From assembly GCF_028368995.1 (NCBI RefSeq), contig NZ_JAQNDL010000003.1, forward strand, positions 2,784,001 through 2,848,000: a DNA stretch of 64,000 nucleotides, given 5' to 3'. Origin of the DNA: Nannocystis bainbridge (GTDB lineage: Bacteria; Myxococcota_A; Polyangia; Nannocystales; Nannocystaceae). Made by a program: the position numbers and the translations under genes. The stretch's first letter is position 1. The number at the start of each line of letters is the position of its first letter. Shown in pieces: positions 8,822-50,746 of this stretch. Below the pieces are notes generated by a model. The model worked only from the letters and a program-made list of their open reading frames with translations, was not told where the DNA came from and ran no database searches.

Positions 8822-10168
8822 TCAGGGCGGATCCGACACGCTCGGGTGCCGGGCCGCCGCCAGGGCCGCGCGGCAAGCCGCCAGCGCCCCGTCGCGCGCG
8901 TCGAACATGGCGAAGCGCTCGCGCGGCTGGACCGCGCCGACGATCAGCGTCGCGGCCATCACCTTGACCGGGTCGCCGCCGGCAAGCAGGGCGACGAAGA
9001 CCAGGTGGGGGTCGGCGAACAGCTGGACGATGTGGCGCCGGATCTCGGGGCCCGGCATGTTGGCCTCGTCGAGCTCGACGAGCAGGGTGTACGGCGCGCC
9101 GTCGCTGGTCAGGCGCGTCATCTCGGCGCGCATCACCTGGACGCTGAATTCGCTCGGCAGCGGGATCTCGTGGTAGCGGATCACCCCGGGCTCGAGCAGC
9201 GCGATCCGGGCGCGGATCGCCCCCACGTCGGCGATCCCGCGCGGGGCGGCGCCCGGGTCGAGCGCGCGCAGCAGGTCGGCCATGCTCGCGTGCCGTCGCC
9301 CGGGCTCGGGGTCGAGGCCGCGGACGATCGCCGCCTGCAGCCAGCCCGGCACATCGCTGTCCTCCGGGACAGGTCCGACGTCGCGCCCGCGGATCGCCCG
9401 CAGACGCGCCTGCAGGTCGCGCGACGGGAACGGCGGGGCGGCGTACAGCGCCTCGTACAGCGCGACGCAGAGCGCGAACTGATCCGCCGCCGGGCCGCCC
9501 GGGTCGCCGGCGAACAGCTCCGGGGCCATGTAGCCGGGGGTCCCGGCCAGCCCGCCCCCCGACGCCTCGCCGACCCGCCGCGCCAGGCCGAAGTCGGCCA
9601 CTCGCACCCCGCCGTCGCGCCCGATCAGCACGTTCTGCGGCTTGAAGTCGCGGTGGCACAGCCCGATCGCGTGCGCGGCCGCCAGCCCGCGCCCGGCCGC
9701 GAGGAACGTCTCGACGATCGCCGGCCACGGCCGCCGCGTGCCCGCGAGCCACTGCGCGAGCGTCTCGCCGTCGACGTGCTCCATCACCACGAACAGCCCG
9801 CCGCGGCCGTCCGGCAGGGTGTAGGTGCCGACATCGTGGACCGTGAGGACGTTCGGGTGCGACAGCCGGGCCATCGCCTGCGCCTCTCGCAGCAGCAGCT
9901 CCGGCGCGGCGGCCTCGCGGTCCTGGCGCATCAACTTGATCGCTACCCCACGCTCGAGCCGAGGATCGTGGGCGAGGTAGACCGCCCCGAACCCGCCGAC
10001 GCCGAGCAGCCGCTGCAGCTGGTAGTGCCCGAGCATCACCGGCCCGGCGGCGCCGAACATCCGCTCCTCGACGTGGCGCAGCAGCAGCGCCGCCTCGACC
10101 GGATCACCGTCGCCGAGGCCCGTCAGGGCGAGCCCTGTCGTCGTCGTCCCGGCGGTGGTCGGACCCAT
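8822..10168 (-). CDS. Ser/Thr protein kinase with C-terminal STAS/SEC14-like alpha/beta domain
   Basis: LGVGGFGAV, VAIK, HRDFKPQN, DFGLA, GTPGYMAPE, DQFALC. No obvious transmembrane segment. Start taken at MGPTTAG. Confidence 0.9.
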   Translation of the reverse strand: MGPTTAGTTTTGLALTGLGDGDPVEAALLLRHVEERMFGAAGPVMLGHYQLQRLLGVGGFGAVYLAHDPRLERGVAIKLMRQDREAAAPELLLREAQAMARLSHPNVLTVHDVGTYTLPDGRGGLFVVMEHVDGETLAQWLAGTRRPWPAIVETFLAAGRGLAAAHAIGLCHRDFKPQNVLIGRDGGVRVADFGLARRVGEASGGGLAGTPGYMAPELFAGDPGGPAADQFALCVALYEALYAAPPFPSRDLQARLRAIRGRDVGPVPEDSDVPGWLQAAIVRGLDPEPGRRHASMADLLRALDPGAAPRGIADVGAIRARIALLEPGVIRYHEIPLPSEFSVQVMRAEMTRLTSDGAPYTLLVELDEANMPGPEIRRHIVQLFADPHLVFVALLAGGDPVKVMAATLIVGAVQPRERFAMFDARDGALAACRAALAAARHPSVSDPP

Positions 10169-16107: not shown

Positions 16108-17265
16108 ATGAACCTCTCGCAGCTCCACGTCCTCGTCGTCGGTGGTGCCACCGGCGGCGCCGCCACGGCCCTCCTCCTCGCGCGCGCCGGAGCCCGCGTC
16201 ACCCTGCTCGAGAAGGTCGCCCAGCCGCGCGCCGTCGGGGCCGGCATCGCCCTCGCCGAGAACGGCCTCGCCGTGCTCGAATCGATCGGCCTCGGCCCGG
16301 CGATCGCCGCCAGCGGTCGCGCCGTCGACGCGCCCGCGGTCGTCGACGCGCGCGGCCGCATGATGCTCGCCCCGCCGCGCCCGGCCCCGCGCGTCCGCAT
16401 GCTCCGGCGCAGCGCCCTGCAGGGCCTGCTGCTCGACGCCCTCGCCGCCGAGCCGCGCGTCGAGCGGCAGTTCGGCGCCGAGGTGATCGGCGCCGAGCGG
16501 GACGGTCGCGTGCTCGCGCGCATCGACGGCCGCACCGTCGAGCACCGCGCCGACCTGGTCGTCGGCGCCGACGGGGTCCATTCGCGGATCCGCAGCGCCG
16601 GCCGGTTCGGCGCCCGGGTCCGCCCGCCCGGCATCCCGTACCTGCGCGCGCTCGTCGAGGTCGACGCCGCCCAGGGCGTCGAGGCCTGGACCGGCGCGGG
16701 CATCTTCGGCAGCTTCGCGGTCGACGGCGGCACCTATTTCTTCGCCTCCGCCGGCACCCGCGCCTGCCGTCGCGCCGTCGCCGAGCGCGACCTCGACGGC
16801 CTGCGCCAGGTGTGGGCCCGCGCCTATCCGGCCTCGGTCCCCCTGCTCGCCGCGGTAAGGCGATTCGACGACCTCATCTTCAACCGCGTCACCCGCGTCG
16901 ACTGCCAGCAATGGGTCGACGACCGCCTCGTCCTGCTCGGCGACGCCGCCCACGCCATGGCGCCCAACCTCGGCCAGGGGGCCAACAGCGCCCTCGTCGA
17001 CGCCGCCGTCCTGCTCGACGAGCTGCGCCGCGCGGGCACCCTCGCCGCTGGCCTCGACGCCTACCAACAGCGCCGCCGCCCCGCCGTGCACAAGGTCGCC
17101 CGCGCCGCCGCCGGCCTCGGCGCCCTCGCCGAGCTCACCAACCCCGTCGCCCGCTGGCTGCGCGACCGCCTGCTGCTCCCCGTGGCAACCCGCCTCGGCG
17201 GCGACGCCACCCCGGTCGTCATGCAGGAGCTCCCCGCCACCCTGCTGGCGATCGGCCGCGCCTGA
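16108..17265 (+). CDS. FAD-dependent monooxygenase (UbiH/salicylate hydroxylase family)
   Basis: VLVVGGATGG, VGADGVHSRIR, LLGDAAHAMAPNLGQGANSALVDA. Confidence 0.9.
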   Translation: MNLSQLHVLVVGGATGGAATALLLARAGARVTLLEKVAQPRAVGAGIALAENGLAVLESIGLGPAIAASGRAVDAPAVVDARGRMMLAPPRPAPRVRMLRRSALQGLLLDALAAEPRVERQFGAEVIGAERDGRVLARIDGRTVEHRADLVVGADGVHSRIRSAGRFGARVRPPGIPYLRALVEVDAAQGVEAWTGAGIFGSFAVDGGTYFFASAGTRACRRAVAERDLDGLRQVWARAYPASVPLLAAVRRFDDLIFNRVTRVDCQQWVDDRLVLLGDAAHAMAPNLGQGANSALVDAAVLLDELRRAGTLAAGLDAYQQRRRPAVHKVARAAAGLGALAELTNPVARWLRDRLLLPVATRLGGDATPVVMQELPATLLAIGRA

Positions 17266-17283
17266 CCGCCGAGTCGCAAAACA

Positions 17284-17367
17284 TGTCCTCGAAGACATTC
17301 CCTATCGAACATGTCCTCGATGGCATGCTCTTACCGACATGACCTTTCGAGCATGCCCGTTCGTACA
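17284..17367. repeat. Tandem array of six 14-bp quasi-palindromes (TGTCCnnnnGGACA family)
   Basis: tgtcctcgaagaca/ttccctatcgaaca/tgtcctcgatggca/tgctcttaccgaca/tgacctttcgagca/tgcccgttcgtaca. Exact 14-bp period, between convergent genes. Confidence 0.85.
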
Positions 17368-17479
17368 GGCATACCCGGGCGGGCCCACGGCGGGTACCAG
17401 TCGACTTGAGCCGAGGTCCGGCGCAGGCGAACCTCGTCACGCTCGCTCGCATCCGCATCGGGTCGCCTCAAACAGGCTG

Positions 17480-19604: not shown

Positions 19605-20051
19605 ATGCAAGAGTGGCTCTACCGCGCGAGCAATGCCAAGGCCGACGCCGCCAAGACCCAGACCATCGTCGACGACTTCGGCTTCATCTGCCGCAGCGCC
19701 TACGCTGACGTGGCCAACGCGCAGATGATCGCCAACGTCGCCAAGGTCGACTTCGGCGACATCATCCACCTCTACTTCATCGACGGCGAGGGCGGCGGCC
19801 GCTCGCTCGGCGCCTACCGCGTCGTCGGTCCCCACAAGCACCCGCGCGGCGCCCTGTTCGGCGCCGCCGTCCCCAAGACCAAGCTGCGCACCGTCGCCGA
19901 CGACGAGCTGCGCGACGTCCTGCGGCCGGACTACGCCGTCGACCCGCGCATCGGCGAGTTCTGCGGCTGGCCCGTCATCCGCGACGAGCAGCCCTCGCCG
20001 AGCTACGTCAAGGACCTGTTCTCCGGCCGCAACACCCTCGTCCCGCGCTGA
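19605..20051 (+). CDS. Hypothetical protein (possible EVE/PUA-like fold)
   Basis: Strong GC3 bias. KVDFGDIIHLYF...LGAYRVV pattern. Confidence 0.7.
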   Translation: MQEWLYRASNAKADAAKTQTIVDDFGFICRSAYADVANAQMIANVAKVDFGDIIHLYFIDGEGGGRSLGAYRVVGPHKHPRGALFGAAVPKTKLRTVADDELRDVLRPDYAVDPRIGEFCGWPVIRDEQPSPSYVKDLFSGRNTLVPR

Positions 20052-20105: not shown

Positions 20106-20549
20106 TCACATGTCCGTAGCGACATGCCCGACGGGACATGTCGCAACGGACACATCATCTCTCCGTCCCCGCGCCTGCAAGTCCGCCAGCACCTTCCCCG
20201 CCCACCTCATGAACGCCTGCCCTCGCGCCGCCGTCGGGTCGACCTTCGCCTCCACGCGCAGCCACGCCGCGTCGGTCCGCAGCGAAAAACTCAGCCCTGT
20301 CCCGTCGCTGCTCGGCATCGTCGCCGCGAACGCCTTCGCCCCGCGCTCCGCCTGCGCGGCCGCCTCGGGCGATCCGAAGCGCAGGCCCACGTGGAGCGGC
20401 ATCACCTGCGGGCTGCCGGAGGCGCCCATCGTCGTCGCCAGCGTGAAGCCCGTGCTGCTGGGCGCTGTCGTGGCCACCGTCCCGTAGTCGCGCAGCCCGG
20501 CGCCCCACGCCCCCAGCGACCGGTCGACCGCGGCCACCATCTTCACCAT
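20106..20549 (-). CDS. Hypothetical protein (3' end runs through the repeat array)
   Basis: ORF with plausible codon usage, no recognised motif. Confidence 0.4.
   Translation of the reverse strand: MVKMVAAVDRSLGAWGAGLRDYGTVATTAPSSTGFTLATTMGASGSPQVMPLHVGLRFGSPEAAAQAERGAKAFAATMPSSDGTGLSFSLRTDAAWLRVEAKVDPTAARGQAFMRWAGKVLADLQARGRRDDVSVATCPVGHVATDM
20111..20152. repeat. Three-unit 14-bp TGTCCnnnnGGACA array
   Basis: tgtccgtagcgaca/tgcccgacgggaca/tgtcgcaacggaca. Confidence 0.8.
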
Positions 20550-22940: not shown

Positions 22941-23073
22941 CCGCCCCGCCTCTCGTGGCCAGGGTACCACGCTCTGCCGCGGGCGAGCGCGCGCCCGCGT
23001 GCTCCATTCCGCGCTGTGACGGCGGACCGGGCCGCCGGCTAGTGCCATTCGCGCCCGGACTTCCACTTCCGCA

Positions 23074-23101
23074 TGTCCCGAGCGACATGTCCGAACAAAC
23101 C
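23074..23101. repeat. Two-unit 14-bp TGTCCnnnnGGACA array
   Basis: tgtcccgagcgaca/tgtccgaacaaacc, directly after the stop of the 23104 gene. Confidence 0.65.
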
Positions 23102-23103
23102 CA

Positions 23104-23310
23104 TCAACCGCGACGCGGCTTCTTCTCGATCACCCGGAACGTCACCCGCACCTTGCCCGGCCCGAGCGAGCGGCGCGCGTCCATGGCCAGGATCTGCCCC
23201 TGTTCGGCCTCGTGGGCGGCCCGAAACGCCGTAATTTGCGCGTCGAACTCGGCGTCGCTGGTGAACGCGAAGTCGTGGTTCAGGGTGATCTTCTCCGGCT
23301 TCTTCGGCAC
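23104..23310 (-). CDS. Small hypothetical protein
   Basis: GTG start with GAGG upstream, GC3 bias (PKKPEKITLNHDF...). Confidence 0.6.
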   Translation of the reverse strand: MPKKPEKITLNHDFAFTSDAEFDAQITAFRAAHEAEQGQILAMDARRSLGPGKVRVTFRVIEKKPRRG

Positions 23311-27797: not shown

Positions 27798-28181
27798 ATG
27801 GGTAACCGACTCTTCGTAGGCAACCTCTCCTTCCAGATCACCGACAGCGACCTCCAGCAGGCGTTTCAGCCGTACGGCGCGGTCAAAGAGGTCAAGCTGA
27901 TGACCGACCGCGAGACCGGGCGCTCGCGCGGCTTCGCGTTCGTGGAGATGACGAGCGACGCTGACGCCAAGCGCGCCATCGAGGCGCTTCACGGCGCGTC
28001 CCTCGACGGCCGCCCGCTGCGGGTGTCCGAGGCGGAAGACCGTCGCTCGGGCGGCGGCGGCGGCGGCGGTGGCTACGGCGGTGGTGGCGGCGGCGGCGGT
28101 TACGGCGGCGGCGGCGGTGGCGGCGGTTACGGCGGCGGCGGCGGTGGTCGCAAGCCGAACCGTGGCGGCGACCGCTACTAG
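27798..28181 (+). CDS. RRM RNA-binding protein with Gly-rich GGGGY tail
   Basis: RNP2 LFVGNL, RNP1 RGFAFVEM. Confidence 0.95.
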   Translation: MGNRLFVGNLSFQITDSDLQQAFQPYGAVKEVKLMTDRETGRSRGFAFVEMTSDADAKRAIEALHGASLDGRPLRVSEAEDRRSGGGGGGGGYGGGGGGGGYGGGGGGGGYGGGGGGRKPNRGGDRY

Positions 28182-29584: not shown

Positions 29585-29626
29585 TGACCCGAAGGACATG
29601 CCCTTTCGAGCATGTACTTTCGAGCA
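29585..29626. repeat. Three-unit 14-bp TGTCCnnnnGGACA array
   Basis: tgacccgaaggaca/tgccctttcgagca/tgtactttcgagca, 10 bp past the stop of the lamin-tail gene. Confidence 0.8.
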
Positions 29627-29636
29627 TATCAGCGCC

Positions 29637-30989
29637 CTACTTCGAGTTGGCGGCGCCGAACGTCGGCTTGCAGCCCGACGACCAGCTGCCTGCCGGCCCG
29701 TCGGCGATCCGGCAGAACGACAGCGCGGCCTGGTCGGCGCCGTAGGACACCTGCGACACGGGCGTGAGGTCGGGCTTCAGCAGCGTCACCGTGTCGCCGT
29801 TGGAGCTGAGGCCGAAAGGGTGCTGGCCGGCCAGATCGCCCTTGGCGACCACCATGAACTGCCCCGGCATCAGCTTCGCCCCGGCGGCGAACACCAGCTT
29901 CTCGAGGTCGTCGACGGGGTCGTAGGTCGCGTCGAACGCCTGGTCGGTGAGGATCCACCCCGCCATGTCGAGCGGGTCGGCCCCGGCGTTGAACAGCTCG
30001 ATCTCGTCGTTGGTCGACTCGAGCTCGTTGATCGCCGCCGCCAGGTCCGACATGCACATCGAGGTGTCGAGGATGCACTGCGGCGTGCAGGCCATCGCCC
30101 CGCCGGTGAAGCCCCGGTCGGCGCACTTGGCCGCCCCGACGTCGAGGCCGTCGCAGGGCTCGCCGCCCTCGCGCACCCCGTTGCCGCAGATCGTCAGCGC
30201 CTCGGTGTTGGCCGCCCCGAGGGTCTGCTCGCAGTGACCCCACGAACCTGTCCCATCGGGCAGGCGGCACCACGACACCATCGCCGTCACCCCCTCGACC
30301 GTCAGCGCGTCGATGACCGCGTCGTCGCCGTCGACCAGCGTCAGCGTCTCCTCGCTGCTCGAGCTGATCCCGAACGGCAGGTCGCCCTCGCCCGACATCA
30401 CGTCGAGCTCGACCAGCACCATCCGCTCGCCGGGCATCAGCGTCGTCCCCGCGGGGAACACGTAGGTCTTGTCGGCCGGCATCGTCGAATCGTCCGACAG
30501 CCGCCAGCCGGACAGGTCGGCCGGCGCCCCGCCGGCGTTCAGCAGCTCGATCGCGTCGCCCTTGCCGGCGTACGGCCCCGACTCCGCCCCCTTCGAGGTC
30601 AGCTCGTTGAGCGCCACCAGCCACTCGGCCGGCTCGCCCACGCAGTTCGAGACGTCGAGCGACAGGCAGTCGGGCGCGCACGCCAGCGGCCCCGAGAAGC
30701 CCGGGTCGACGTCGGCGCACGACATCCCGCCGAGCTCCGCCCCGTCGCACAGCTCGTCGCCCCCGACGATCCCGTCGCCGCACGCCGGCGCGCCCGGCCC
30801 CTCCGAGGTCACCGAAGGCCCGTCGCCGCTGCTGCTGCTGCCGTCCGGCCGGTCGCCGCCGCTGCTGCCGTCGTCCGGCGAATCATCGGTGGCGGAAGCA
30901 TTGTTCATACCGCCGCTCGGGTTGCAGCCGACCAGCGCCGGCCCCGCGATGCACAATAGTGACAGAGACACCCCTACGATTCGCCGCAT
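29637..30989 (-). CDS. Lipoprotein with two lamin-tail domains and Cys-rich repeats
   Basis: Lipobox LVGC. LNEL/INEL...IELxNAG...DLSGWRLSD/DMAGWILTD, PFGISS/PFGLSS, TLGAAN/TFGAAN twice. CGDG/CGNG repeats. Confidence 0.85.
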   Translation of the reverse strand: MRRIVGVSLSLLCIAGPALVGCNPSGGMNNASATDDSPDDGSSGGDRPDGSSSSGDGPSVTSEGPGAPACGDGIVGGDELCDGAELGGMSCADVDPGFSGPLACAPDCLSLDVSNCVGEPAEWLVALNELTSKGAESGPYAGKGDAIELLNAGGAPADLSGWRLSDDSTMPADKTYVFPAGTTLMPGERMVLVELDVMSGEGDLPFGISSSSEETLTLVDGDDAVIDALTVEGVTAMVSWCRLPDGTGSWGHCEQTLGAANTEALTICGNGVREGGEPCDGLDVGAAKCADRGFTGGAMACTPQCILDTSMCMSDLAAAINELESTNDEIELFNAGADPLDMAGWILTDQAFDATYDPVDDLEKLVFAAGAKLMPGQFMVVAKGDLAGQHPFGLSSNGDTVTLLKPDLTPVSQVSYGADQAALSFCRIADGPAGSWSSGCKPTFGAANSK

Positions 30990-37018: not shown

Positions 37019-38152
37019 TCACCGCTCTTGCCAGTCGATCGGCACCGGCTCGAACCACCCCGGCGGATAGCCGTAGTCCTCGCCGCACTCGTCGATCACC
37101 CCGAACGAGCGCGCGCCTGCTCCCGTCACCTCGTACGTCGAGCCGACCAGCAGGCTCGCGCTGCCGGCTTCGAGCTCCGCCGCCCAGCGCGGCGTCGCCG
37201 ACACCACGTGCGGCATGAACACCTCGCTGTTGCGGACGCAGCGGGCGCGTAGCCGCTCGAGCGCCGGCAGGCGCAGCACCTCGCGCAGCTCGGCCAGGCG
37301 GGCCGCCGCGATCGCTCGCCAGTCGGCGTAGCCGAGCATCTCGAGCACGCAGGCCGCGAACACCCGCGGGCGATTGAGCGGCAGCAGCGCGTCACAGTCG
37401 TCCTCGCCGCGGAACCCGGCCGACGGGCAGCGCTCGACCCAGCGGTCGGCGATCCGGTACACCGGCCGCACGCTGGTCCCGCCGAGCAGGATGTGCACCT
37501 CCGGCCGCAGCTCCGCCAGCCGCTCCAGCAGCTCGTCCTCGGTGCCCGCGCGCAGCTCCTCGGCCAGCGGCCCGGGCGCATCGAGCAGCAGCTCGCGGAT
37601 GTCCGATCGGACATGGTCGAAAGCGCAGACCAGCCCGCGGCTCCCGGCCTGCAGCGACCACGTCCCGCGCCGCGTCGTCGCCCGCCAGAACACCGCGCGG
37701 CTGCGGCGATGATCGCCCGCGGCCGCGGCCGTCAGCGCGCGCCGCAGGTGTCGCAGCCGGCGCGCCCGCGGCGGACCGGCGCCGATCGTCGGCTCGAACA
37801 GCACCAGCTGGCGCACCAGGTCCGGCCGGCGCAGGGCCGCGTGGATCGCCGCCGCGCAGCTCCCGGCCCACGCCACCACCTCCGCCGCCTCGCCCATGCT
37901 CTCGATCACCGCGATCAGATCGTCGCCGTGGCTCGCCCACCACCGCTGCGGCGCCGGCGTGCCGCGGCTGTCGCCCCAGCCGCGGCGGTCGTACGTCACC
38001 GCGCGCAGGTGCGGCGCCAGGTGATCGGCCGCGGCCGCCAGGCCTCGCCGCGTCATCCCGGTCGGGTGCACGAGCACCACCGGCTCGCCTTGCCCGCGCG
38101 ATTCGCCGACCAGCACGACACCGTCGGGTCGCTTGAGGGACCACGAGCGCAC
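37019..38152 (-). CDS. Alpha/beta hydrolase fold protein with degenerate nucleophile elbow and C-terminal extension
   Basis: PVVLVHP, TYDRRGWGDS, LVLFEP. AWAGS occupies the GxSxG position. Confidence 0.7.
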   Translation of the reverse strand: MRSWSLKRPDGVVLVGESRGQGEPVVLVHPTGMTRRGLAAAADHLAPHLRAVTYDRRGWGDSRGTPAPQRWWASHGDDLIAVIESMGEAAEVVAWAGSCAAAIHAALRRPDLVRQLVLFEPTIGAGPPRARRLRHLRRALTAAAAGDHRRSRAVFWRATTRRGTWSLQAGSRGLVCAFDHVRSDIRELLLDAPGPLAEELRAGTEDELLERLAELRPEVHILLGGTSVRPVYRIADRWVERCPSAGFRGEDDCDALLPLNRPRVFAACVLEMLGYADWRAIAAARLAELREVLRLPALERLRARCVRNSEVFMPHVVSATPRWAAELEAGSASLLVGSTYEVTGAGARSFGVIDECGEDYGYPPGWFEPVPIDWQER

Positions 38153-42320: not shown

Positions 42321-42875
42321 ATGTCCAGCGACACCTTTTACGTCGAGATCCACCCCGTCTCGGACGACACCGTGGAGCTCCGGTGCACCACCGGCACCGC
42401 CGGCGGCACCAACGACTACGCGCTGACGCGATCGTTCGTGCTGTCGGTCCTGGTCGACGGCATGCCGTACCCTGGCACCGACCCGACGCCGCTGCACCGG
42501 GCCATGCAGGCCGTCAGCGGCCCGGTCCCGCCGGTGTGGGAAAAGAGCTTCCACCGCGAGCACATCGACAAGTTCATCGTCTCGGCCGAGCTCGTCGAGC
42601 GCCGCGGCATCATCGCCGACGAGCACGCCTGGCAGGAGGGCCGCGACATGGGCGGCCCCGGGTCCGAGGCGCTGTTCCCCTCGCACAGTTTCGTCCTCCG
42701 CGCCCGCGTCACCGACCCCCGCTTCCTCGAGGGCATCCAGTACGGCGCGCCCTTCGGCACCACCGCCTTCGACGCCTGGTGGGACGACCCGACCCGCCCG
42801 AGCTACGCCGAGATGGCCGCCATCGAGGCCAGAGCCTCGCGCTGGCACCCGAAGCCTGACGGCGACCTCGCTTGA
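42321..42875 (+). CDS. Hypothetical protein
   Basis: GC3-biased ORF from MSSDTFY. Confidence 0.7.
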   Translation: MSSDTFYVEIHPVSDDTVELRCTTGTAGGTNDYALTRSFVLSVLVDGMPYPGTDPTPLHRAMQAVSGPVPPVWEKSFHREHIDKFIVSAELVERRGIIADEHAWQEGRDMGGPGSEALFPSHSFVLRARVTDPRFLEGIQYGAPFGTTAFDAWWDDPTRPSYAEMAAIEARASRWHPKPDGDLA

Positions 42876-42904: not shown

Positions 42905-42918
42905 TGTCCCTTCAGACA
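42905..42918. repeat. Single 14-bp TGTCCnnnnGGACA-family unit
   Basis: tgtcccttcagaca, 30 bp after the stop at 42875. Confidence 0.45.
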
Positions 42919-43022
42919 GCTCGAACTCCGGCCTCCCCGACCTGTCCTCTTCGCCACCTCGTGAGTGAGCCCGGCGGCTGCCTGCAGACACCCGCCGCGA
43001 TCGCGGGTAGAACTGCCCCGCC

Positions 43023-43985
43023 CTGCCCACCGGCGACATCCTCCCGCTCCTGATCACCCTGTTCGGGCTCGTCGTCGTCGGCCAGCTGTTGCGGCTCACG
43101 GGGGCCCTGCCGGCCGGCGCCCCGGACGTGCTCGCGCGCGTCATCCTGACCGTCACGATGCCGGCGCTGATCGTCGTCATCCTCGCCGACGCTCGCTTCG
43201 AGCCGGCTCTGGTGCCGGCGGTGTTCGCCTGCACCGTCGCCCTGTTCAGCGCCTGCGCTCTCGGCGTCCTGCTCCTGCGGTTTCGCGGCGCCTCGCGCCC
43301 CGCCCAGGGCGCCGCCGGCATCACCGCGGCCTTCGCCAACACCGCCTTCCTCGGCGTCCCCTTCGTCCTCGCCGTGTTCCCTGGCTCGCGCGGGGCCGCC
43401 ACCGCCGCGGTGATCATCGACACCGTCGACACCACCATCCTCCTGCTCACCTTCGGCGTCGCCTTCGCCGGCGCCATGGCGCGCCCGCGCGGCCCGGTCA
43501 CCACGCCGCTGCGGCCCCGGCTCCTGCGCGCCGGCGGCTCGCTGCTGCGCCAGCCGATGATCGTCGCCGTGCTCGTCGGCCTCGCGCTGGCTCTCGGCGG
43601 CCTCGCCATCCCGCCTGCCCTGGCCAAACCGCTCGCCCAGGTCGGCCAGACCACCGCAGTCCTCGCCTTCCTCACCATCGGCCTCGGCCTCGACCTCCGC
43701 TCCCTGCGCGGCCAGACCGTCCCGCTCGCCGGCATCGCGGTCATCAAGCTGCTCATCGCTCCGGCCCTCGCCTGCCTCGTCCTGCTCGCCCTCGACGTCC
43801 GCGGCGACGTCGCCCGCACCGCCGTCCTGCAGGCCGCCATGCCGACCGCCGTGGTCTCGGCGATCATCGCCACCAACGCCGGCTGCGACGGCCAGCTCGC
43901 CGCCGCCGCCGCCGTCGTCACCACCTTGCTGTCGCTCGCCACCCTCCCGCTCGTGCTCGCCGGCCTGCAGGCGATCGGTCTGTAG
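43023..43985 (+). CDS. AEC (auxin efflux carrier/malate permease) family transporter; start uncertain (CTG 43023 or TTG 43089)
   Basis: FANTAFLGVP, KLLIAP, LQAAMPTA, TTLLSLATLP. Confidence 0.85.
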   Translation: MPTGDILPLLITLFGLVVVGQLLRLTGALPAGAPDVLARVILTVTMPALIVVILADARFEPALVPAVFACTVALFSACALGVLLLRFRGASRPAQGAAGITAAFANTAFLGVPFVLAVFPGSRGAATAAVIIDTVDTTILLLTFGVAFAGAMARPRGPVTTPLRPRLLRAGGSLLRQPMIVAVLVGLALALGGLAIPPALAKPLAQVGQTTAVLAFLTIGLGLDLRSLRGQTVPLAGIAVIKLLIAPALACLVLLALDVRGDVARTAVLQAAMPTAVVSAIIATNAGCDGQLAAAAAVVTTLLSLATLPLVLAGLQAIGL

Positions 43986-44003
43986 CGGCGCGGACGATCC
44001 ACA

Positions 44004-44070
44004 TGTCCCATGAGACATGCTCGTCACATGTCTCGAACGACATGTCTCATAAAGCATGTCCGATCGCGCA
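44004..44070. repeat. Five-unit 14-bp TGTCCnnnnGGACA array with one 11-bp unit
   Basis: tgtcccatgagaca/tgctcgtcaca/tgtctcgaacgaca/tgtctcataaagca/tgtccgatcgcgca, between convergent genes. Confidence 0.85.
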
Positions 44071-44087
44071 TCATGCCGGACCGAAAG

Positions 44088-45294: not shown

Positions 45295-46046
45295 CGCCCG
45301 GGTGAAAATTTCTCACAGGGCCTCGTTGCGGGCCCCTGGCGCCGGTATTTCCCGGGCAGGGGACCCCGCGCAGCACGCGTGCCCCCGGGCGACGTCCCCG
45401 GTTCGAGGGATGCGTCCGCCTCGACCTCGCTACCCGCGGCCGCGAGGGTCCGGTCGGCTCCGAGCTCGTCCCGACCTGGCCCTTCAGACATCTATACATT
45501 CACCCAGCGGCGCGCCGGTCGCCGCGCGGCGGGTGCGACGAATGTCCCACCGGCGGTCACTCGCGGCCCGCCCTCACCCCGTGTATGACCACTACCCTCA
45601 ATGACCATACCGTCGAATCACGACAGCCCGGCGAACGCTCCTGCCCGTGCGCGGCGGGCTCCGGGGCCGCCGCGGGCGCGCCGCTTGTCCAATGAATCCA
45701 GCCAGTTCCCCCGCCACGCCGCGCGGCGGCCCGGACGCGGCCCGCGGCGCGGCGTCCGGTCCTCGCGGCGCGGCGGGCGATGCACGCCAATCACTATGTC
45801 TATTGTGTAGCGCGTTACATCCTGGCGGACCGCGGCGGGAATTCGCGGCTGCGCGGGCTCGTCCGGCGATCGGTCGGCACCCATGATTTCACCGGTCTAT
45901 TCGCGTCTCGGCCGCGCGGCGACGGCCCCGCGCGGCCGCTTCCGGCCATACGTCGCCATTGCTCGCCTGCGCGACGCCATCATCCTTCGAATCGGAGCGG
46001 CCGCGGGGCTCCACCCGCCGTCCTCCGCAAGAAAGGATTTGCTACC

Positions 46047-46646
46047 ATGTCTCGCAACATTCTCATGTTGGCCCCTGCGCTCGCGTTCGCTCTGCCGTTC
46101 GTCACCTCCCAGCCGACGATGGCGCGTCCCCTGGCCACCCCGGCCCCCGAGACGCTGTGGGGCGGCCACGACGACGATGATGACGACGACGACCACGGGG
46201 GCGACGACGTGATCGGCCTGCTGGTCTGCTTCGAGGCGCAGATCGTGCTCGGGGAGGAGAACCGCGCCCTCTCGTGCGACCTCGTCGAGGGCCCGCAGTG
46301 CCTCTCCAACTGCACCGCCGAGGCGGTCGCCCCGCTGTGCGCCTCGGAGATCGCCACCCGCGCCCGCGGCGGTGACTTCGCCTCCTGTCAGGAGGAGCGC
46401 CTGGCCGCCTGCCGCAGTCAATGCGAGACCGGCGGCGCCGCCTTCTGCCACGAGGGCGCGGCCCTCGAGGCCCGCGACGGCAAGCACGACGACGACGACG
46501 ACGACAACGACGACAACAACCACAAGGACGACGACGACGATGACGACGACATCCAGTCGAACATCGACATCCACGAGGAGGACGGCCTGATCTTCATCGA
46601 CATCGAGATCTGCCTCGACCTCATGATCGACCCCGACCGGCTCTGA
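46047..46646 (+). CDS. Secreted Cys-rich protein with two poly-Asp tracts
   Basis: AAAGGA Shine-Dalgarno, signal peptide, HDDDDDDDDH and HDDDDDDNDDNNHKDDDDDDDD flanking a Cys-rich core. Confidence 0.75.
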   Translation: MSRNILMLAPALAFALPFVTSQPTMARPLATPAPETLWGGHDDDDDDDDHGGDDVIGLLVCFEAQIVLGEENRALSCDLVEGPQCLSNCTAEAVAPLCASEIATRARGGDFASCQEERLAACRSQCETGGAAFCHEGAALEARDGKHDDDDDDNDDNNHKDDDDDDDDIQSNIDIHEEDGLIFIDIEICLDLMIDPDRL

Positions 46647-46706
46647 TCGGCGCAGCGCCCAGCGCCTGGCCGCGATCGGCGCTTCGCCGGTCGCGGCCCC
46701 TTCGCG

Positions 46707-47810
46707 TCACAGGCCCTGCACGAACTCCCAGATCCGCTGGCCGCCGAACAGCGGCCAGCCGTGGGTGGTGTCGTCGTAACCACCCTCGCTGTGCTCGCAC
46801 CACACCACCGGCGCGCCGGGATCGCAGCCCTGGTACGCCGCGCAAGCGTGGCTCTCGGGCTCGGCCTCGACCGCGGCGTGGACCTCGGCGATCGTCGGCA
46901 CCGTGTCCTCACCGCAGCCGTCGCGCTCGCGCCAGAAATCGCGCGCCTGCTCGCCGTTGTCGAACGGTACGTGCACGTCGGCGATCCCGTGGATCACCAG
47001 CGCCGCGACCTTGTCGACGCAGCCGTCCTTCTCGGGCAAGTAGCCAGCCACCGGCGCTATCGCCAGCAGCCGGTCGCCGAACCGACAGCCGAGGATGTTG
47101 ACAAAATGCGCGCCCGAGCTGGTGCCGGCGGCGAACACCCGCGCCTCGTCGACACAATACTCGCCGACCATGCGATCGAGCACCGCCGTGAAGAACTCGG
47201 CGTTGATCTCGCGCTCGCCGTCGCCTTCCCAGCCGGTCCCGCCGAGCGACGTCATGTAGATCAGGATCGCGTGCTCCTGCATCGCCGCCTGAAACCCGGC
47301 GCAATCACCGTCCTGACAATTGGGCCCGGTGCGGTTGCGACCGTGGAAGGCGAAGCCGAGCGGATACGGCGTATTGGGATCGTAGTTGGGAGGCAGCGAC
47401 ACGATGTACTGCCCCGATTGACCCTGCACCGAGATCTTGTGCGCCCCGCTCGACGGATTCATCGCACCACAGCCCGCGCTGCCGACCGGCTCGATGGGGC
47501 CCGTCGTCGTGCTCGGATCGGTGGTCGTCGTGCTCGCTTCGGTCGTCGGCTCCCCGGTCGTCGGCTCCCCGGTCGTCGGCGCGCCGGTCGTGCCCGCGTC
47601 CGTGCTCGTCGAGGCCGCGGCGGTCGTCCCGCCGGTGGTCGTGCTGGCCTCGCCGGTGGGCCCGCCGGTGCTCGTCGACGCGTCCGTCGTGCCCGTCGTG
47701 GTCGCCACGCCCGTCGCGTCGGTGTCACCGCCGCCGCCGCCCGAGCAGCCGCCGATCGCCCCGACCGCCAGCCACCCCACCCACCACAGATCGCGCAATC
47801 CGAGGATCAT
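46707..47810 (-). CDS. Lipoprotein esterase, LpqC/PHB depolymerase/feruloyl esterase-like
   Basis: Lipobox IGGC, GSAGCG, FAFHG, GTSSG nucleophile, IHGIAD, HGWP. Confidence 0.85.
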   Translation of the reverse strand: MILGLRDLWWVGWLAVGAIGGCSGGGGGDTDATGVATTTGTTDASTSTGGPTGEASTTTGGTTAAASTSTDAGTTGAPTTGEPTTGEPTTEASTTTTDPSTTTGPIEPVGSAGCGAMNPSSGAHKISVQGQSGQYIVSLPPNYDPNTPYPLGFAFHGRNRTGPNCQDGDCAGFQAAMQEHAILIYMTSLGGTGWEGDGEREINAEFFTAVLDRMVGEYCVDEARVFAAGTSSGAHFVNILGCRFGDRLLAIAPVAGYLPEKDGCVDKVAALVIHGIADVHVPFDNGEQARDFWRERDGCGEDTVPTIAEVHAAVEAEPESHACAAYQGCDPGAPVVWCEHSEGGYDDTTHGWPLFGGQRIWEFVQGL

Positions 47811-47904: not shown

Positions 47905-48735
47905 ATGCGCGATCCTCGAGAGGTCTCACGCTCGGACGCCGCGGCGATGGGGGCAGAGGCCCTGAAGGTCTGTCACGCCGGTCGATACACCGCGCCCTCG
48001 GGCCGGGTCGTCGCGCTGGATGATCCGATCGCCCGCGCGATCGCCGGGACCACCGACATCCCGCCCGACCTCGACCTCGACCTCGCGCCGGGCGGCGACC
48101 GGCCCGTGCGCTTCGAGGTCGTCAATGTCAGCACTCTGGTCGCCGCGCGCCGGCTCCACGACGCCGGCCGCGACGTCGTCGCCCTCAACTTCGCCTCCGC
48201 GCGCCGCCCGGGCGGCGGCTTCCTGTCGGGCGCGCGGGCCCAGGAGGAGTCGCTGTGCCGCGCCTCCGCGCTCTTCGTATGTCTCGAAGGCCAGGCGATG
48301 TACCGCCACCACGACGGCTGGCAGGACGCGATGCACGGCGACCGTATGGTCCATTCGCCGGCGGTCCCGGTGTTTCGCGGCGACCACGGCCCGCTGCTCG
48401 AGCAGCCGTGGCCCTGCGGCTTCATCACCGCCGCCGCGCCCAACCGCAACGCCCTGCGCCGCCACGCCCCCGAGCGCGAGCCGGAGCTGCCGCGAGTGTT
48501 CGCCGCCCGCATCGCCCGCGTGCTCGCGGTCGCCGCCCGCGCCGGCCACGACGCCGTGGTCCTCGGCGCCTGGGGCTGCGGCGCGTTCGGCTGCGACCCC
48601 GAGCTCGTCGCCGAGCAGTTCCACGCCGCCCTGTCCGGCCCGTTCCGCGGCACCTTCGCGCACGTCGTGTTCGCCGTCCTCGACACCAGCCCCGAGCGCC
48701 GCACCATCGCCCCGTTCGAGCGCCGGTTTACATGA
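47905..48735 (+). CDS. TIGR02452 family protein (bacterial PARG-like macrodomain)
   Basis: LNFASARRPGGGFLSGARAQEESLCRAS, LGAWGCGAFG. Confidence 0.9.
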   Translation: MRDPREVSRSDAAAMGAEALKVCHAGRYTAPSGRVVALDDPIARAIAGTTDIPPDLDLDLAPGGDRPVRFEVVNVSTLVAARRLHDAGRDVVALNFASARRPGGGFLSGARAQEESLCRASALFVCLEGQAMYRHHDGWQDAMHGDRMVHSPAVPVFRGDHGPLLEQPWPCGFITAAAPNRNALRRHAPEREPELPRVFAARIARVLAVAARAGHDAVVLGAWGCGAFGCDPELVAEQFHAALSGPFRGTFAHVVFAVLDTSPERRTIAPFERRFT

Positions 48736-48774
48736 CCGATAGGACATGTCTACATGAACATGTCCTATCGTTCA
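48733..48774. repeat. Three-unit 14-bp TGTCCnnnnGGACA array filling the gap between convergent stops
   Basis: tgaccgataggaca/tgtctacatgaaca/tgtcctatcgttca. The first TGA is the stop codon of the TIGR02452 gene. Confidence 0.85.
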
Positions 48775-50745: not shown

Positions 50746-50746
50746 A

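Follow-up and report, generated by a model that had tools for sequence, protein, structure and literature searches.

Introduction

REP, BIME and REPIN elements of enterobacteria and pseudomonads are imperfect palindromes of ca. 20-40 bp (unit ca. 35 bp) with a conserved GTAG/CGTC-type tetranucleotide tag at one foot and are mobilised by RAYT transposases. The sites of chromosome-organising proteins (the NBS of Noc, SBS of SlmA, matS of MatP, ram of RacA and parS of ParB) occur in tens of mostly isolated copies with a regional bias. TRIT of Mycobacterium tuberculosis is a lineage-specific terminator motif. The cyanobacterial highly iterated palindrome HIP1, GCGATCGC, is 15- to 300-fold over-represented according to the section cited here (Xu, Lawrence and Durand 2018, PMC5861425), and its function is described in the cited sections as only starting to be resolved after about thirty years (PMC5861425; Elhai 2015, PMC4390886). 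The DNA uptake sequences (DUS and USS) of Neisseriaceae and Pasteurellaceae, in the cited part of Treangen et al. 2008 (PMC2397512), are genus-level words with thousands of copies in genes and spacers, the spacer copies often taking the form of transcript-end hairpins. GGGNATC heptamer repeats are presented in the cited part of Rehm et al. 2015 (PMC4692102) as intergenic hairpins of Xanthomonas and Nostoc.

Here we describe a palindromic DNA word of Nannocystis whose closest analogues are HIP1, REP/BIME and DUS pairs and which is a member of none of them. Like HIP1, as far as the sections cited above describe it, the word is a short, lineage-confined palindrome that lies one to two orders of magnitude above codon-aware expectation, and its copies may likewise be conserved both inside ORFs and between them. 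It differs in being an interrupted 5-4-5 palindrome with extended flanks, whereas HIP1 is an 8-mer, and in that we found no cognate orphan methyltransferase tracking it (the one D12-class enzyme is found in 69 of 73 genomes of the order). We know of no description of HIP1 as phase-locked tandem arrays at gene 3′ ends. The likeness to REP/BIME lies in thousands of palindromic copies, often clustered, that stand behind stop codons, prefer convergent spacers and can form transcript hairpins; however, the Nannocystis unit is 14 bp long and symmetric, with TG/CA at both feet and no GTAG-type tag, and its units abut with zero spacer and in exact phase. With DUS the word shares thousands of copies in genes and spacers and spacer copies able to form end hairpins, but DUS and USS, as described in the section cited above, are asymmetric, a hairpin requiring an inverted pair, whereas the Nannocystis word is itself palindromic and builds multi-unit arrays. 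Chromosome-organising sites, which dimers recognise, are also palindromes (12-16 bp) scattered along the chromosome; unlike them, the Nannocystis word is present in thousands of copies and in tandem arrays. Heptamer repeats and TRIT also bring short phased units or a conserved hairpin motif to gene ends, between convergent genes, but differ in unit sequence and architecture, and to our knowledge no intragenic enrichment has been reported for either.

A sequence-only reading of the DNA studied here did not recognise these arrays as a described element, and neither did the present analysis. Rfam gave no match in the window at gathering scores and none at E values up to 1 on positions 17200-17450, and a literature search found no description of Nannocystis palindrome arrays. 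Among the matches listed, the decamer GGACATGTCC was met in the literature solely as a half-site of p53 or in contexts that have no bearing on these arrays.

Results

Palindrome arrays in the 64-kb window

The window, i.e., the whole stretch of 64,000 nucleotides that was analysed, is part of an 11-Mb genome. The repeated module, TGYCC-N4-GGRCA, has a length of 14 bp, and on the outer side its half-site continues as AC(A/C)TGTCC; the single-site form of the word is ACCTGTCC-N4-GGACAGGT, and CATG is the seam where two modules abut. The nine sites that had been listed in the window as arrays or units at gene 3′ ends, given here without strand, are the following.

17284-17367: six-unit array of head-to-tail 14-mers, five CATG seams and one CATT
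20111-20152: three-unit array, ca. 60 nt past the stop codon at 20051, in which the first unit is nearly the reverse complement of the third
23074-23101: two-unit array directly past the stop of minus-strand ORF 23104-23310
29585-29626: three-unit array past the stop of minus-strand gene 29637-30956; the first unit begins with TGA
42905-42918: single degenerate unit of the isolated type with a left ACC flank and no CATG seam; not an array
44004-44070: a short phased chain at 44002-44019 and another at 44027-44058, their registers differing by 11 bp; together they take up the convergent spacer 43986-44087
48733-48774: three-unit array whose first and third units are nearly each other's reverse complements; unit 1 would contain the end of ORF 48020-48742
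50747-50788: degenerate three-unit array with seams AATG, CATA and CATG, filling the convergent spacer 50746-50802
55700-55713: a single perfect unit with a CATG seam on either side; the convergent spacer is 55670-55799

The array at 17284-17367 is composed of six units, just as had been proposed, and fills the left part of a convergent spacer between genes ending at 17265 (plus strand) and 17480 (minus strand). The predicted RNA fold of the region 17266-17380 is -32.3 kcal/mol (z -2.1) for the plus strand and -56.3 kcal/mol (z -6.3) for the minus strand. When arrays were defined strictly, by at least two exact CATG at 14/28-bp phase, they were located at positions 17282-17355, 20109-20140, 23072-23089, 29597-29614, 44002-44019 together with 44027-44058, 48731-48762 and 55698-55715; seven of the nine sites are thus arrays in this strict sense, while 50747-50788 and 42905-42918 are not. 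The former of these two had been read as three units and is a degenerate array with one exact CATG, and the supposed single five-unit array at 44004-44070 resolves into the two chains listed above. All nine sites do lie in spacers just past a stop codon according to our rough gene calls, made with a caller of our own (7932 genes, 82% coding). Six of them had been considered convergent; by the gene calls four are, with a fifth if ORF 48020-48742 is a gene. Among RNA data, the stretch was present in no run from an isolate, and metatranscriptome contigs (one run, 0.06 share) covered the window only at 46009-46808, a segment with no array inside.

Abundance and phasing in the genome

A search of the window with TGTCCNNNNGGACA, allowing at most one mismatch, gave 21 matches, compared to 1.53 ± 1.01 in dinucleotide shuffles, none of 100 of which reached 21. 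The excess over chance extends to the genome, where 3736 pairs of CATG are found at lag 14 and ca. 70-300 at neighbouring spacings. Pairs were also counted at lags 28 (2073), 42 (1584), 56 (742) and 70 (350), and off-phase pairs are at background for lags 13 (72), 15 (262) and 16 (79). The spacing of arrays is rigid, with no one-base slip. The 14-bp phase is therefore not confined to the window: 2074 phased chains are present in the genome. A pattern of four seams has 869 matches, and the same pattern read backwards has none. The sequence GACATGTC is the commonest intergenic 8-mer, with 1615 copies and 12 times its density in coding DNA.

Anatomy of the module

Array edges coincide with a complete unit (T 0.52, G 0.72, n, C 0.58, C 0.59, nnnn, G 0.73, G 0.76, A 0.61) and no CA precedes the outermost unit; it is for this reason that the module is taken to be the 14-mer, in which a 7-mer alternates with its inverse. 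Of 1036 interior seams that had no role in detection, 905 read CATG (95-97% per base). Conservation is 48-76% at the inner positions of the arms, and the 4-bp centre is unconstrained and A/T-enriched. Oriented variants of the seam are symmetric (CATT 16 vs AATG 13; CAGG 13 vs CCTG 12).

Compensatory covariation was not found either within units or across seams in 2803 units. The frequency of Watson-Crick pairs in these units was 0.44 for pair 3/12 (expected 0.424), 0.584 for pair 4/11 (expected 0.558) and 0.577 for pair 5/10 (expected 0.576). Flanks of isolated copies (n = 1590) show no positive covariation except for the -1/+1 pair in spacers, which we interpret as two kinds of flank mixed together. 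Each half-site degenerates independently of the other. The absence of covariation excludes RNA pairing only in part, since each arm of an array has every other arm as a possible partner. Between units, the centres show only marginal complementarity (3.7% vs 1.7% at separation 2).

The proposal that the motif and its phase are under selection, rather than being a product of recent slippage, is supported by conservation of the seam and core, though some growth of arrays by unit duplication is visible: 4.8-10.8% of unit pairs within an array share at least eight of ten positions, compared to 1.8% of background pairs. A minisatellite or VNTR was rejected as an explanation, both because there are 2074 loci, not few, and because so small a share of within-array pairs agree at that number of variable positions.

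Position of arrays relative to genes

Out of 703 arrays of at least three units, convergent spacers hold 413, tandem spacers 220 and divergent ones 15, the remaining 55 being within called genes. A chain is present in 596 of 1019 convergent spacers of 50-400 bp (58%). Arrays start ca. 24 nt past the stop codon, and in tandem spacers they lie 23-25 nt past the stop and 197-229 nt ahead of the next start. Among arrays starting 0-13 nt past the stop, 66 of 231 do so at distance 9, with the TGA being the first three bases of the unit. Arrays were found behind 5 of 102 tRNA genes, which is the chance level, and behind none of the three rRNA operons, all of which end in a textbook hairpin followed by a T run. 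This lack of an array excess at tRNA and rRNA 3′ ends runs against the expectation of a pure DNA-site model. The few arrays in divergent spacers were also considered as possible neighbours of an autoregulated reader gene; this was rejected, as most of the 15 cases are long spacers that probably hide uncalled genes.

This distribution would suit purely RNA-level elements, that is, stem-loop modules of the 3′-UTR, the DNA word having no reader. We consider such an element rather unlikely, and the same holds for the functions it would have, namely to end transcription both ways or to block 3′-to-5′ exonucleases, on protein-coding messages only. The start of arrays at or just past stop codons, the preferred phase that places TGA in the unit, the near absence from divergent spacers and the presence behind protein genes and not behind tRNA or rRNA genes all agree with it. 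Since T runs are found at only ca. 7-10% of protein-gene 3′ ends, another end signal is needed there. The predicted folds of 12 arrays range from -22 to -49 kcal/mol, with the minus-strand z value of the 17284-17367 array being the -6.3 given above, and the fold strength of arrays equals that of convergent spacers devoid of them (best 50-nt fold of -26.9 kcal/mol with arrays and -27.35 without; -25.0 in divergent spacers). In unidirectional spacers, the sense-strand G+T content is 0.538 in the arms (CI 0.526-0.550) vs 0.492 in the centre, and the sense RNA of arrays folds 2.9 kcal/mol better (CI 2.0-3.8); 300 control 3′ regions show no such bias. The G+T excess points to some RNA-level selection, but strand-biased mutation could also produce it, and the effect of the replication strand on arm composition (0.617 vs 0.460) is larger than that of transcription, so we have downgraded the excess as proof of RNA pairing. 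Besides the missing covariation, the conservation profile is the reverse of what selection for stem stability would give, since it peaks at the outermost U-A/G-C pairs and is lower at the inner G-C pairs; the loop length is invariant, and there is no U tract. A canonical intrinsic terminator, in which a U tract directly follows a G+C-rich hairpin, was rejected: among 1082 3′ ends with an array, only 115 show a T run, and T is not favoured over A in the sense strand of the centre.

An array-bound putative protein that halts RNA polymerase arriving from either side would also suit the two-fold symmetry of multi-unit arrays and their depletion from divergent spacers. Arrays are on the whole longer in convergent than in tandem spacers, and the ca. 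200 nt left ahead of the next gene in tandem spacers would give room for a promoter. However, many arrays start on the stop codon or within a few bases of it, where, judging from the polymerase footprint, a block would stall polymerase before the stop is transcribed, and most chains (1371 of 2074) have only one or two units. A transcription roadblock, as it had been put forward, is therefore highly improbable, and the copies inside genes described below make it more so.

Isolated copies inside genes

The sequence-only reading had dealt with gene ends and did not mention that the 14-mer is over-represented within genes. Further copies in the window, again listed without strand, are isolated from the arrays.

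425-438: isolated perfect 14-mer with an ACC flank, within a conserved gene
4484: isolated 14-mer copy in a gene, from the TGTCCNNNNGGACA search with at most one mismatch
9358-9371: isolated perfect 14-mer within minus-strand gene 8822-10168
30249-30262: isolated one-mismatch 14-mer with ACC/GG flanks, within gene 29637-30956
37600-37627: perfect 14-mer plus one abutting degenerate unit, within minus-strand gene 37019-38116
62223-62236: isolated perfect 14-mer in a spacer, 28 nt ahead of the start at 62264

In 6521 genes, the exact 14-mer is present 674 times, compared to 19.2 ± 3.7 after synonymous shuffling (ca. 36-fold), and in the interiors of 4703 genes 475 times, compared to 13.0 ± 5.4, the copies being spread evenly across gene deciles. 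Both excesses surpass 15-fold over codon-aware expectation, the threshold of a HIP1-type word. Four control palindromes of the same composition are not enriched in genes. About a third of the perfect copies are intragenic. The arrays are mostly placed outside genes in the manner of REP elements, yet 559 of 1987 perfect copies stand isolated in gene interiors. Altogether, some 560-680 isolated copies lie within genes, although some of them, above all the 31 three-seam chains in gene interiors, may be gene mis-calls.

Intragenic copies in the window were compared to related genomes, and four of six were recovered with conserved arms, the centre varying at three of these in this small sample. At 425-438, arms are kept in four of five relatives and the centre is variable; 30249-30262 is identical in four of five; at 37600-37627, arms are kept in four relatives with three different centres. 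No orthologous segment for 9358-9371 was present in the DNA of the relatives that was compared. An end signal would be harmful inside genes, and the intragenic excess thus argues against an element acting at the RNA level only; hundreds of isolated intragenic copies are equally hard to reconcile with a roadblock.

Taxonomic range and conservation

Arrays are abundant only in six large Nannocystis genomes. The four-seam pattern, with its 869 matches here, has 409-527 in other species, 1-13 in five small genomes of the genus and 22 in one genome of another genus. The word is carried by all ten other genomes of the genus (G001-G010) and by G053; a few phased chains are present in G061, G062 and G067, and a few isolated extended copies in G036, G037, G013, G051 and G055. 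The rest of the family, among the genomes compared, does not carry it. Analogous phased arrays of another motif were not found in five sister genera, a sample of 41-80 kb each and hence of low power, which contained one 7-bp tandem repeat. Mesorhizobium matches to a two-unit pattern were rejected as copies of an unrelated 44-bp perfect palindrome.

Arrays stand at the same stop codon in up to five relatives without alignable units, in species whose flanking genes are 85-90% identical. In the spacer matching 17284-17367, phased arrays are present in four related genomes, and an array directly follows the stop orthologous to that of 44004-44070 in five of five relatives, its units being unalignable. 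Arrays occupy the place of 48733-48774 in two relatives, three clean units that of 50747-50788 in one, and two units that of 55700-55713 in one; at the place of 23074-23101, a single CATG-seamed unit is kept. Where arrays could be aligned (44 units), the identity is ca. 0.80-0.84 for the core, 0.36-0.48 for the centre and 0.46 for other spacer DNA, with the reservation that the alignment may favour the core. Arrays that are retained at orthologous stops with the core kept and the rest randomised require continuing constraint.

Constraint of this kind speaks against a selfish or drive-maintained repeat, i.e., a word kept without host function that survives where it is harmless. Its maintenance could come from an unrecognised transposase acting on mini-hairpins in the manner of REP/RAYT, from biased repair, or from a DUS/USS-like uptake or recombination drive; we regard both the general proposal and these candidates as unlikely on present evidence. 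In its favour, the word is restricted to the genus and patchy, its copy number differs ca. two-fold between species, and unit duplication is visible. Copies are rarer behind genes of low codon score (8% in the lowest fifth vs 26-27% in the top two fifths), which fits long residence. In substrates of single-strand transposases, a short palindrome of variable sequence has a conserved tetranucleotide at its foot, and the conserved seam of the Nannocystis word may be seen as reminiscent of this arrangement. DUS, too, occur in genes and as inverted terminator pairs, as stated in the cited section of PMC2397512. On the other hand, neither insertion footprints nor target duplications were seen, and a Y1/RAYT gene, which had been put forward as something to look for with the motif on its flanks, is lacking: PF01797 has no match in 11 genomes of the genus, though the search did detect it in 20 genomes elsewhere in the order and in 6 of the 14 controls, and mobilisation by RAYT was rejected. 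The suggestion of a REP/BIME-like element therefore holds for position (3′ ends, convergent bias) and fails for membership, given the absence of RAYT, the 14-bp unit and the many intragenic copies.

Discussion

The explanation that we prefer, tentatively and at somewhat less than an even chance, is that of a genus-specific highly iterated palindrome that is read as double-stranded DNA by a putative two-fold symmetric factor and has been duplicated into arrays of overlapping sites at 3′ ends, where it probably also provides end hairpins. Single copies of the 14-mer word would be maintained in genes and spacers, and in spacers directly behind the stop codons of protein genes units would multiply by duplication. 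Abutting units would supply each other with outer flanks (ACA|TGT), which would explain why the CATG seam is the best conserved part and why spacing shows no one-base slip. Arrays would gather at 3′ ends, foremost between convergent genes, because, as we propose, they are selected against in promoters. Once transcribed, an array would give each message a long imperfect hairpin, and for this reason arrays are probably also two-way transcript-end elements, like REP/BIME and DUS pairs.

The platform for a dimeric protein envisaged earlier is in line with this explanation. It is favoured statistically, if indirectly, by independent half-sites, rigid spacing and the 36-fold intragenic excess, all of them sequence-derived, and we infer that the reader may be a protein that structures the nucleoid or chromosome, a receptor for DNA uptake or a modifying enzyme. 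Two specific candidates were considered. The sequence A|TGTCC-N4-GGACA|T fits ATGT-N8-ACAT, which we take to be the consensus of PadR operators; PF03551 has no matches in this genome, the richest in arrays, and none in one other large genome of the genus. As for a CATG-linked Dam-like methyltransferase, the sole D12 enzyme (PF02086) is found in the 69 of 73 genomes of the order mentioned above, does not track the arrays and is uninformative.

One can also imagine a putative dimeric protein that binds AC(A/C)TGTCC-N4-GGACA(G/T)GT and coats or insulates the ends of transcription units, the intragenic sites anchoring the nucleoid. We find this quite doubtful. Dimers on an array would be 14 bp apart and, since 14 bp is four thirds of a helical turn, every third dimer would be in phase, producing a helical coat of up to about six putative dimers; coated arrays would mark the ends of more than 1000 transcription units. 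Such a boundary-element system, if true, would be of a bacterial type without a known counterpart.

If the preferred reading, that of a word read by a putative symmetric factor, holds, Nannocystis offers, after HIP1 and independently of it, another instance of an extremely abundant palindromic word. Compared to what is known of HIP1, the word offers additional handles: the hosts are culturable, and the architecture of two half-sites is suited to pull-down of a reader. With arrays in more than half of mid-sized convergent spacers, strong signals would be expected in ChIP, methylome or 3′-end experiments. The arrays likely cause annotation errors, since they contain ATG in all six frames, and in metagenomes the presence of the word is diagnostic for the genus. 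Finally, the arrays bear on the question of how messages end in very G+C-rich bacteria, where few protein genes have T runs and rRNA operons have textbook terminators.

Phased Arrays in the Window and across the Genome

Head-to-tail 14-bp units with conserved arms and variable centres had been described in the sequence-only reading, and six abutting 14-mers (TGYCC-N4-GGRCA) were confirmed at the site concerned:

17284–17367, six-unit array; the 14-mers abut, with arms TG(Y)CC and GG(R)CA and unrelated 4-bp centres

The seams between the units of this array read CATG five times and CATT once. At no more than one mismatch, TGTCCNNNNGGACA has 21 matches in the window, against 1.53 ± 1.01 in 100 dinucleotide shuffles, none of which reached this number. 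Nine array sites had been claimed. By a strict rule (at least two exact CATG in 14- or 28-bp phase) arrays are present at seven of them; 50747 is a degenerate array and 42905 a lone unit. The site at 44004, taken for one five-unit array, does contain phased units, but these form two chains whose phases differ by 11 bp. Two other repeats in the window, a tandem repeat of 43–46 bp period and ~3.5 copies at 60877–61026 and a 95-bp (GGC)n/27-bp repeat at 28050–28144, are unrelated to the 14-mer.

The 14-bp phasing holds outside the window. In the whole genome (G000; 11.05 Mb, five contigs, G+C 71.5%), CATG pairs number 3736, 2073, 1584, 742 and 350 at lags 14, 28, 42, 56 and 70, and 72, 79 and 83 at the off-phase lags 13, 16 and 17; the counts at lags 12 and 15 (294 and 262) are those usual for lags divisible by three. 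Lags 6–9 and 14k ± 6–8 show a smaller excess, because some units have CATG as their 4-bp centre, as in this example:

44002–44019, half-period site (CATG centre)

The genome carries 2074 chained arrays spanning one (1003), two (368), three (279), four (241), five (133), six (37) or more than six (13) units, the longest having 19. The most intergenic-enriched 8-mers all derive from the 14-mer motif, and GACATGTC is the top 8-mer of intergenic DNA, with 1615 copies and 12 times its coding density.

Anatomy of the Unit

To avoid bias, seam conservation was read from the seam lying midway between two that are 28 bp apart, the chains being defined by the latter alone. This middle seam reads CATG 905 times out of 1036, each base being 95–97% conserved; arm positions are conserved at 48–76%, and the 4-bp centre is unconstrained, yet A/T-rich relative to the genome. 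Past their terminal exact CATG, arrays continue for one complete unit and then stop; the module is therefore the 14-mer, CATG being the seam between two modules. Oriented seam variants are symmetric.

No covariation of paired positions was found within units: observed and expected Watson–Crick frequencies are 0.44 and 0.424 (pair 3/12), 0.584 and 0.558 (4/11), and 0.577 and 0.576 (5/10). Across the CATG seam there was none or a negative association. Units of the same array share at least 8 of 10 positions in direct orientation in 4.8–10.8% of pairs, against a background of 1.8%, while inverted resemblance at separations 1–4 is hardly raised (1.3–3.7% vs 1.7%). It follows that arrays grow by unit duplication and later diverge.

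The Word inside Genes and as Isolated Copies

New relative to the first reading is the over-representation of the 14-mer inside genes. Exact copies in 6521 genes number 674, against 19.2 ± 3.7 expected when synonymous codons are shuffled within each gene, and four control palindromes of matched composition lack such enrichment. The interiors of 4703 high-scoring genes hold 475 copies against 13.0 ± 5.4, evenly across gene deciles. Intragenic copies are flanked by gACC before the unit and GGTc after it. Four of the six intragenic copies of the window were located in relatives with conserved arms; their centres vary at 425, 4484 and 37600 and are identical at 30249.

Altogether, the genome holds 1987 perfect copies, 581 arrayed and 1406 isolated. 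Of the latter, 559 lie in gene interiors, 781 in spacers (254 convergent, 437 tandem, 90 divergent) and 66 either in genes that score low or no more than 30 nt from a gene end. In isolated copies, flank positions do not covary, the one exception being the mixed pair −1/+1 of spacer copies. Isolated (ACC) and arrayed (ACA) copies have the outer consensus AC at −3/−2 in common. Arrayed units therefore supply the flanks of their neighbours, which would explain why the seam reads CATG and why no spacer separates the units.

The extended form of the isolated word, ACCTGTCC-N4-GGACAGGT, was detected in 15 of 73 genomes (control, 0): nine of 11 Nannocystis, four of another genus of the order (that of G053) and two of a third. 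It is commonest (19 and 15 copies) in two small, array-poor Nannocystis genomes. From this range and abundance, we conclude that the word predates its amplification into arrays. At 42940–42970 of the window, ahead of the gene that starts at 43089, the half-word ACCTGTCC and a T/C-rich stretch after it are conserved in two or more relatives; this half-word could be a single site close to a promoter.

On four counts a DNA site made of two half-sites is a closer fit than a stem-loop under selection: each half-site degenerates independently of the other, conservation is highest at the outermost bases, neither the spacing within units nor that between them slips by even one base, and conserved intragenic copies are in 36-fold excess.

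Arrays at Gene Ends and RNA Folding

Genes were called with a home-made codon-usage caller (7932 genes, 82% coding), the calls being rough. Enrichment at convergent junctions is borne out genome-wide: arrays of at least three units number 413 in convergent, 220 in tandem and 15 in divergent spacers, with 55 inside called genes, against 1437, 4284 and 1460 spacers of the three kinds. Most of the 15 divergent arrays are in long spacers, where the caller has probably missed genes. A chain is present in 596 of 1019 convergent spacers of 50–400 bp and within 120 nt past 1520 of 5317 gene 3′ ends having at least 60 bp downstream. In tandem spacers the median array lies 23–25 nt past the upstream stop and 197–229 nt ahead of the next start. 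The distance from stop to first CATG is itself phased, being exactly 9 nt in 66 of 231 arrays that start 0–13 nt past the stop, so that the unit opens with TGA. This peak has echoes at −5 and 23.

Genes of typical codon usage are followed by arrays more often: 26–27% in the top two fifths, 8% in the lowest. Of the 102 tRNA genes, only five are followed by a chain within 150 bp, which is about chance level, and all three rRNA operons end, without an array, in a textbook terminator:

G000 C1:4463070–4463105, intrinsic terminator behind 5S genes; also at C1:2062846 and C5:64878

These terminators, a G+C-rich hairpin followed by a T run, are identical in the three operons; thus, canonical termination operates in this 72% G+C genome. 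A T run is found at only about 7–10% of protein-gene 3′ ends. Since arrays hug stop codons and avoid promoters and stable-RNA genes, they matter, or are tolerated, specifically at message ends. That they act there as a protein roadblock we regard as very improbable.

Twelve arrays gave predicted RNA folds of −22 to −49 kcal/mol, usually forming a single long hairpin by pairing between units. The hairpin potential of arrays at message ends equals that of array-less spacers: best local folds match those of array-less convergent spacers and are stronger than those of divergent spacers. In unidirectional spacers, the sense RNA of arrays is stabler than the antisense, and the G+T fraction, balanced for replication strand, is 0.538 (CI 0.526–0.550) in arms vs 0.492 in centres. 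An element acting at message ends through RNA alone would accommodate both observations; however, the replication-strand effect on arms is larger (0.617 vs 0.460), and strand-biased mutation under mutation–selection balance could produce both effects, so the sense-strand asymmetry is weak evidence for an RNA role. We consider the RNA-only explanation unlikely. Replication-strand asymmetry in the arms (G 1058 vs C 660) is far above that of the unconstrained centres. GC skew in 100-kb bins is strong on all contigs (about ±0.07–0.10), switching sign near C3:1.5 Mb and C1:4.4 Mb; gene-strand bias is weak.

Taxonomic Range and Persistence

Record titles assign contigs bearing the two-unit pattern to the genus Nannocystis. 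The four-seam pattern occurs 869 times in G000, 409–527 times in five other large Nannocystis genomes and 1–13 times in five smaller ones; outside the genus, four genomes have 22, 10, 2 and 1, and the remaining 58 of the order have none. Its backwards control gave 0 in every genome. Five sister genera, sampled at 41–80 kb each, showed no analogous phased family. Mesorhizobium records matching the two-unit pattern (L017, L021, L025, L043, L048) contain a 44-bp perfect palindrome that encloses two TGTCC-N4-GGACA units with flanking C and G runs and recurs across many species at unrelated loci; it is a separate REP-like family.

Cross-species tests were based on one region of 64–80 kb, syntenic in five relatives (flanking-gene identity 85–93%). 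The same stop codons carry arrays there, for example past 43985 in all five and past 17265 in four; the units of orthologous arrays are unalignable, with seam and phase kept. In the few alignable arrays (44 units with reciprocal pairs pooled), the identity of the four seam bases is 0.80–0.84, though the alignment may favour them, against 0.36–0.48 for centres and 0.46 for the rest of the spacer DNA.

Two loci differ in gene content. At 43986–44087 all five relatives have an extra minus-strand gene (~1.3 kb) between the genes that are convergent here, and in one of them both resulting spacers bear their own array. The gene at 42321–42875 stops at 42875 without the repetitive AAGAAG/GCC-rich tract, of species-variable length, into which three relatives extend its ortholog; judging by codons, we read this tract as a putative lysine/alanine/proline-rich tail of the histone-H1-like kind.

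Relation to Known Elements and Proposed Function

Rfam returned no match for the window at gathering scores or, at E up to 1, for 17200–17450, and no description of the element was found in the literature searched. According to PMC5861425, HIP1 is over-represented and conserved in and between ORFs; the 14-mer shares the over-representation and probably also the conservation. REP/BIME elements resemble the arrays in placement. DUS, according to PMC2397512, join genic copies with terminator-forming pairs in spacers, a combination that the 14-mer resembles. The 14-mer element fails a defining test of REP/BIME and is probably a member of neither of the other two. A REP/BIME-like origin through a RAYT gene was not upheld, RAYT being absent from the 11 Nannocystis genomes searched. 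PadR was rejected as the protein reading the 14-mer, since it is absent from G000; a D12 methyltransferase, as a word-linked enzyme, is an uninformative candidate, since it is present order-wide. A selfish or drive-maintained repeat is, in our judgement, an improbable explanation.

Our tentative proposal, to which we give slightly less than an even chance, is a genus-specific, highly iterated palindrome that a putative dimeric protein would read, and that would have been amplified into arrays of overlapping sites which may additionally act as transcript-end hairpins.
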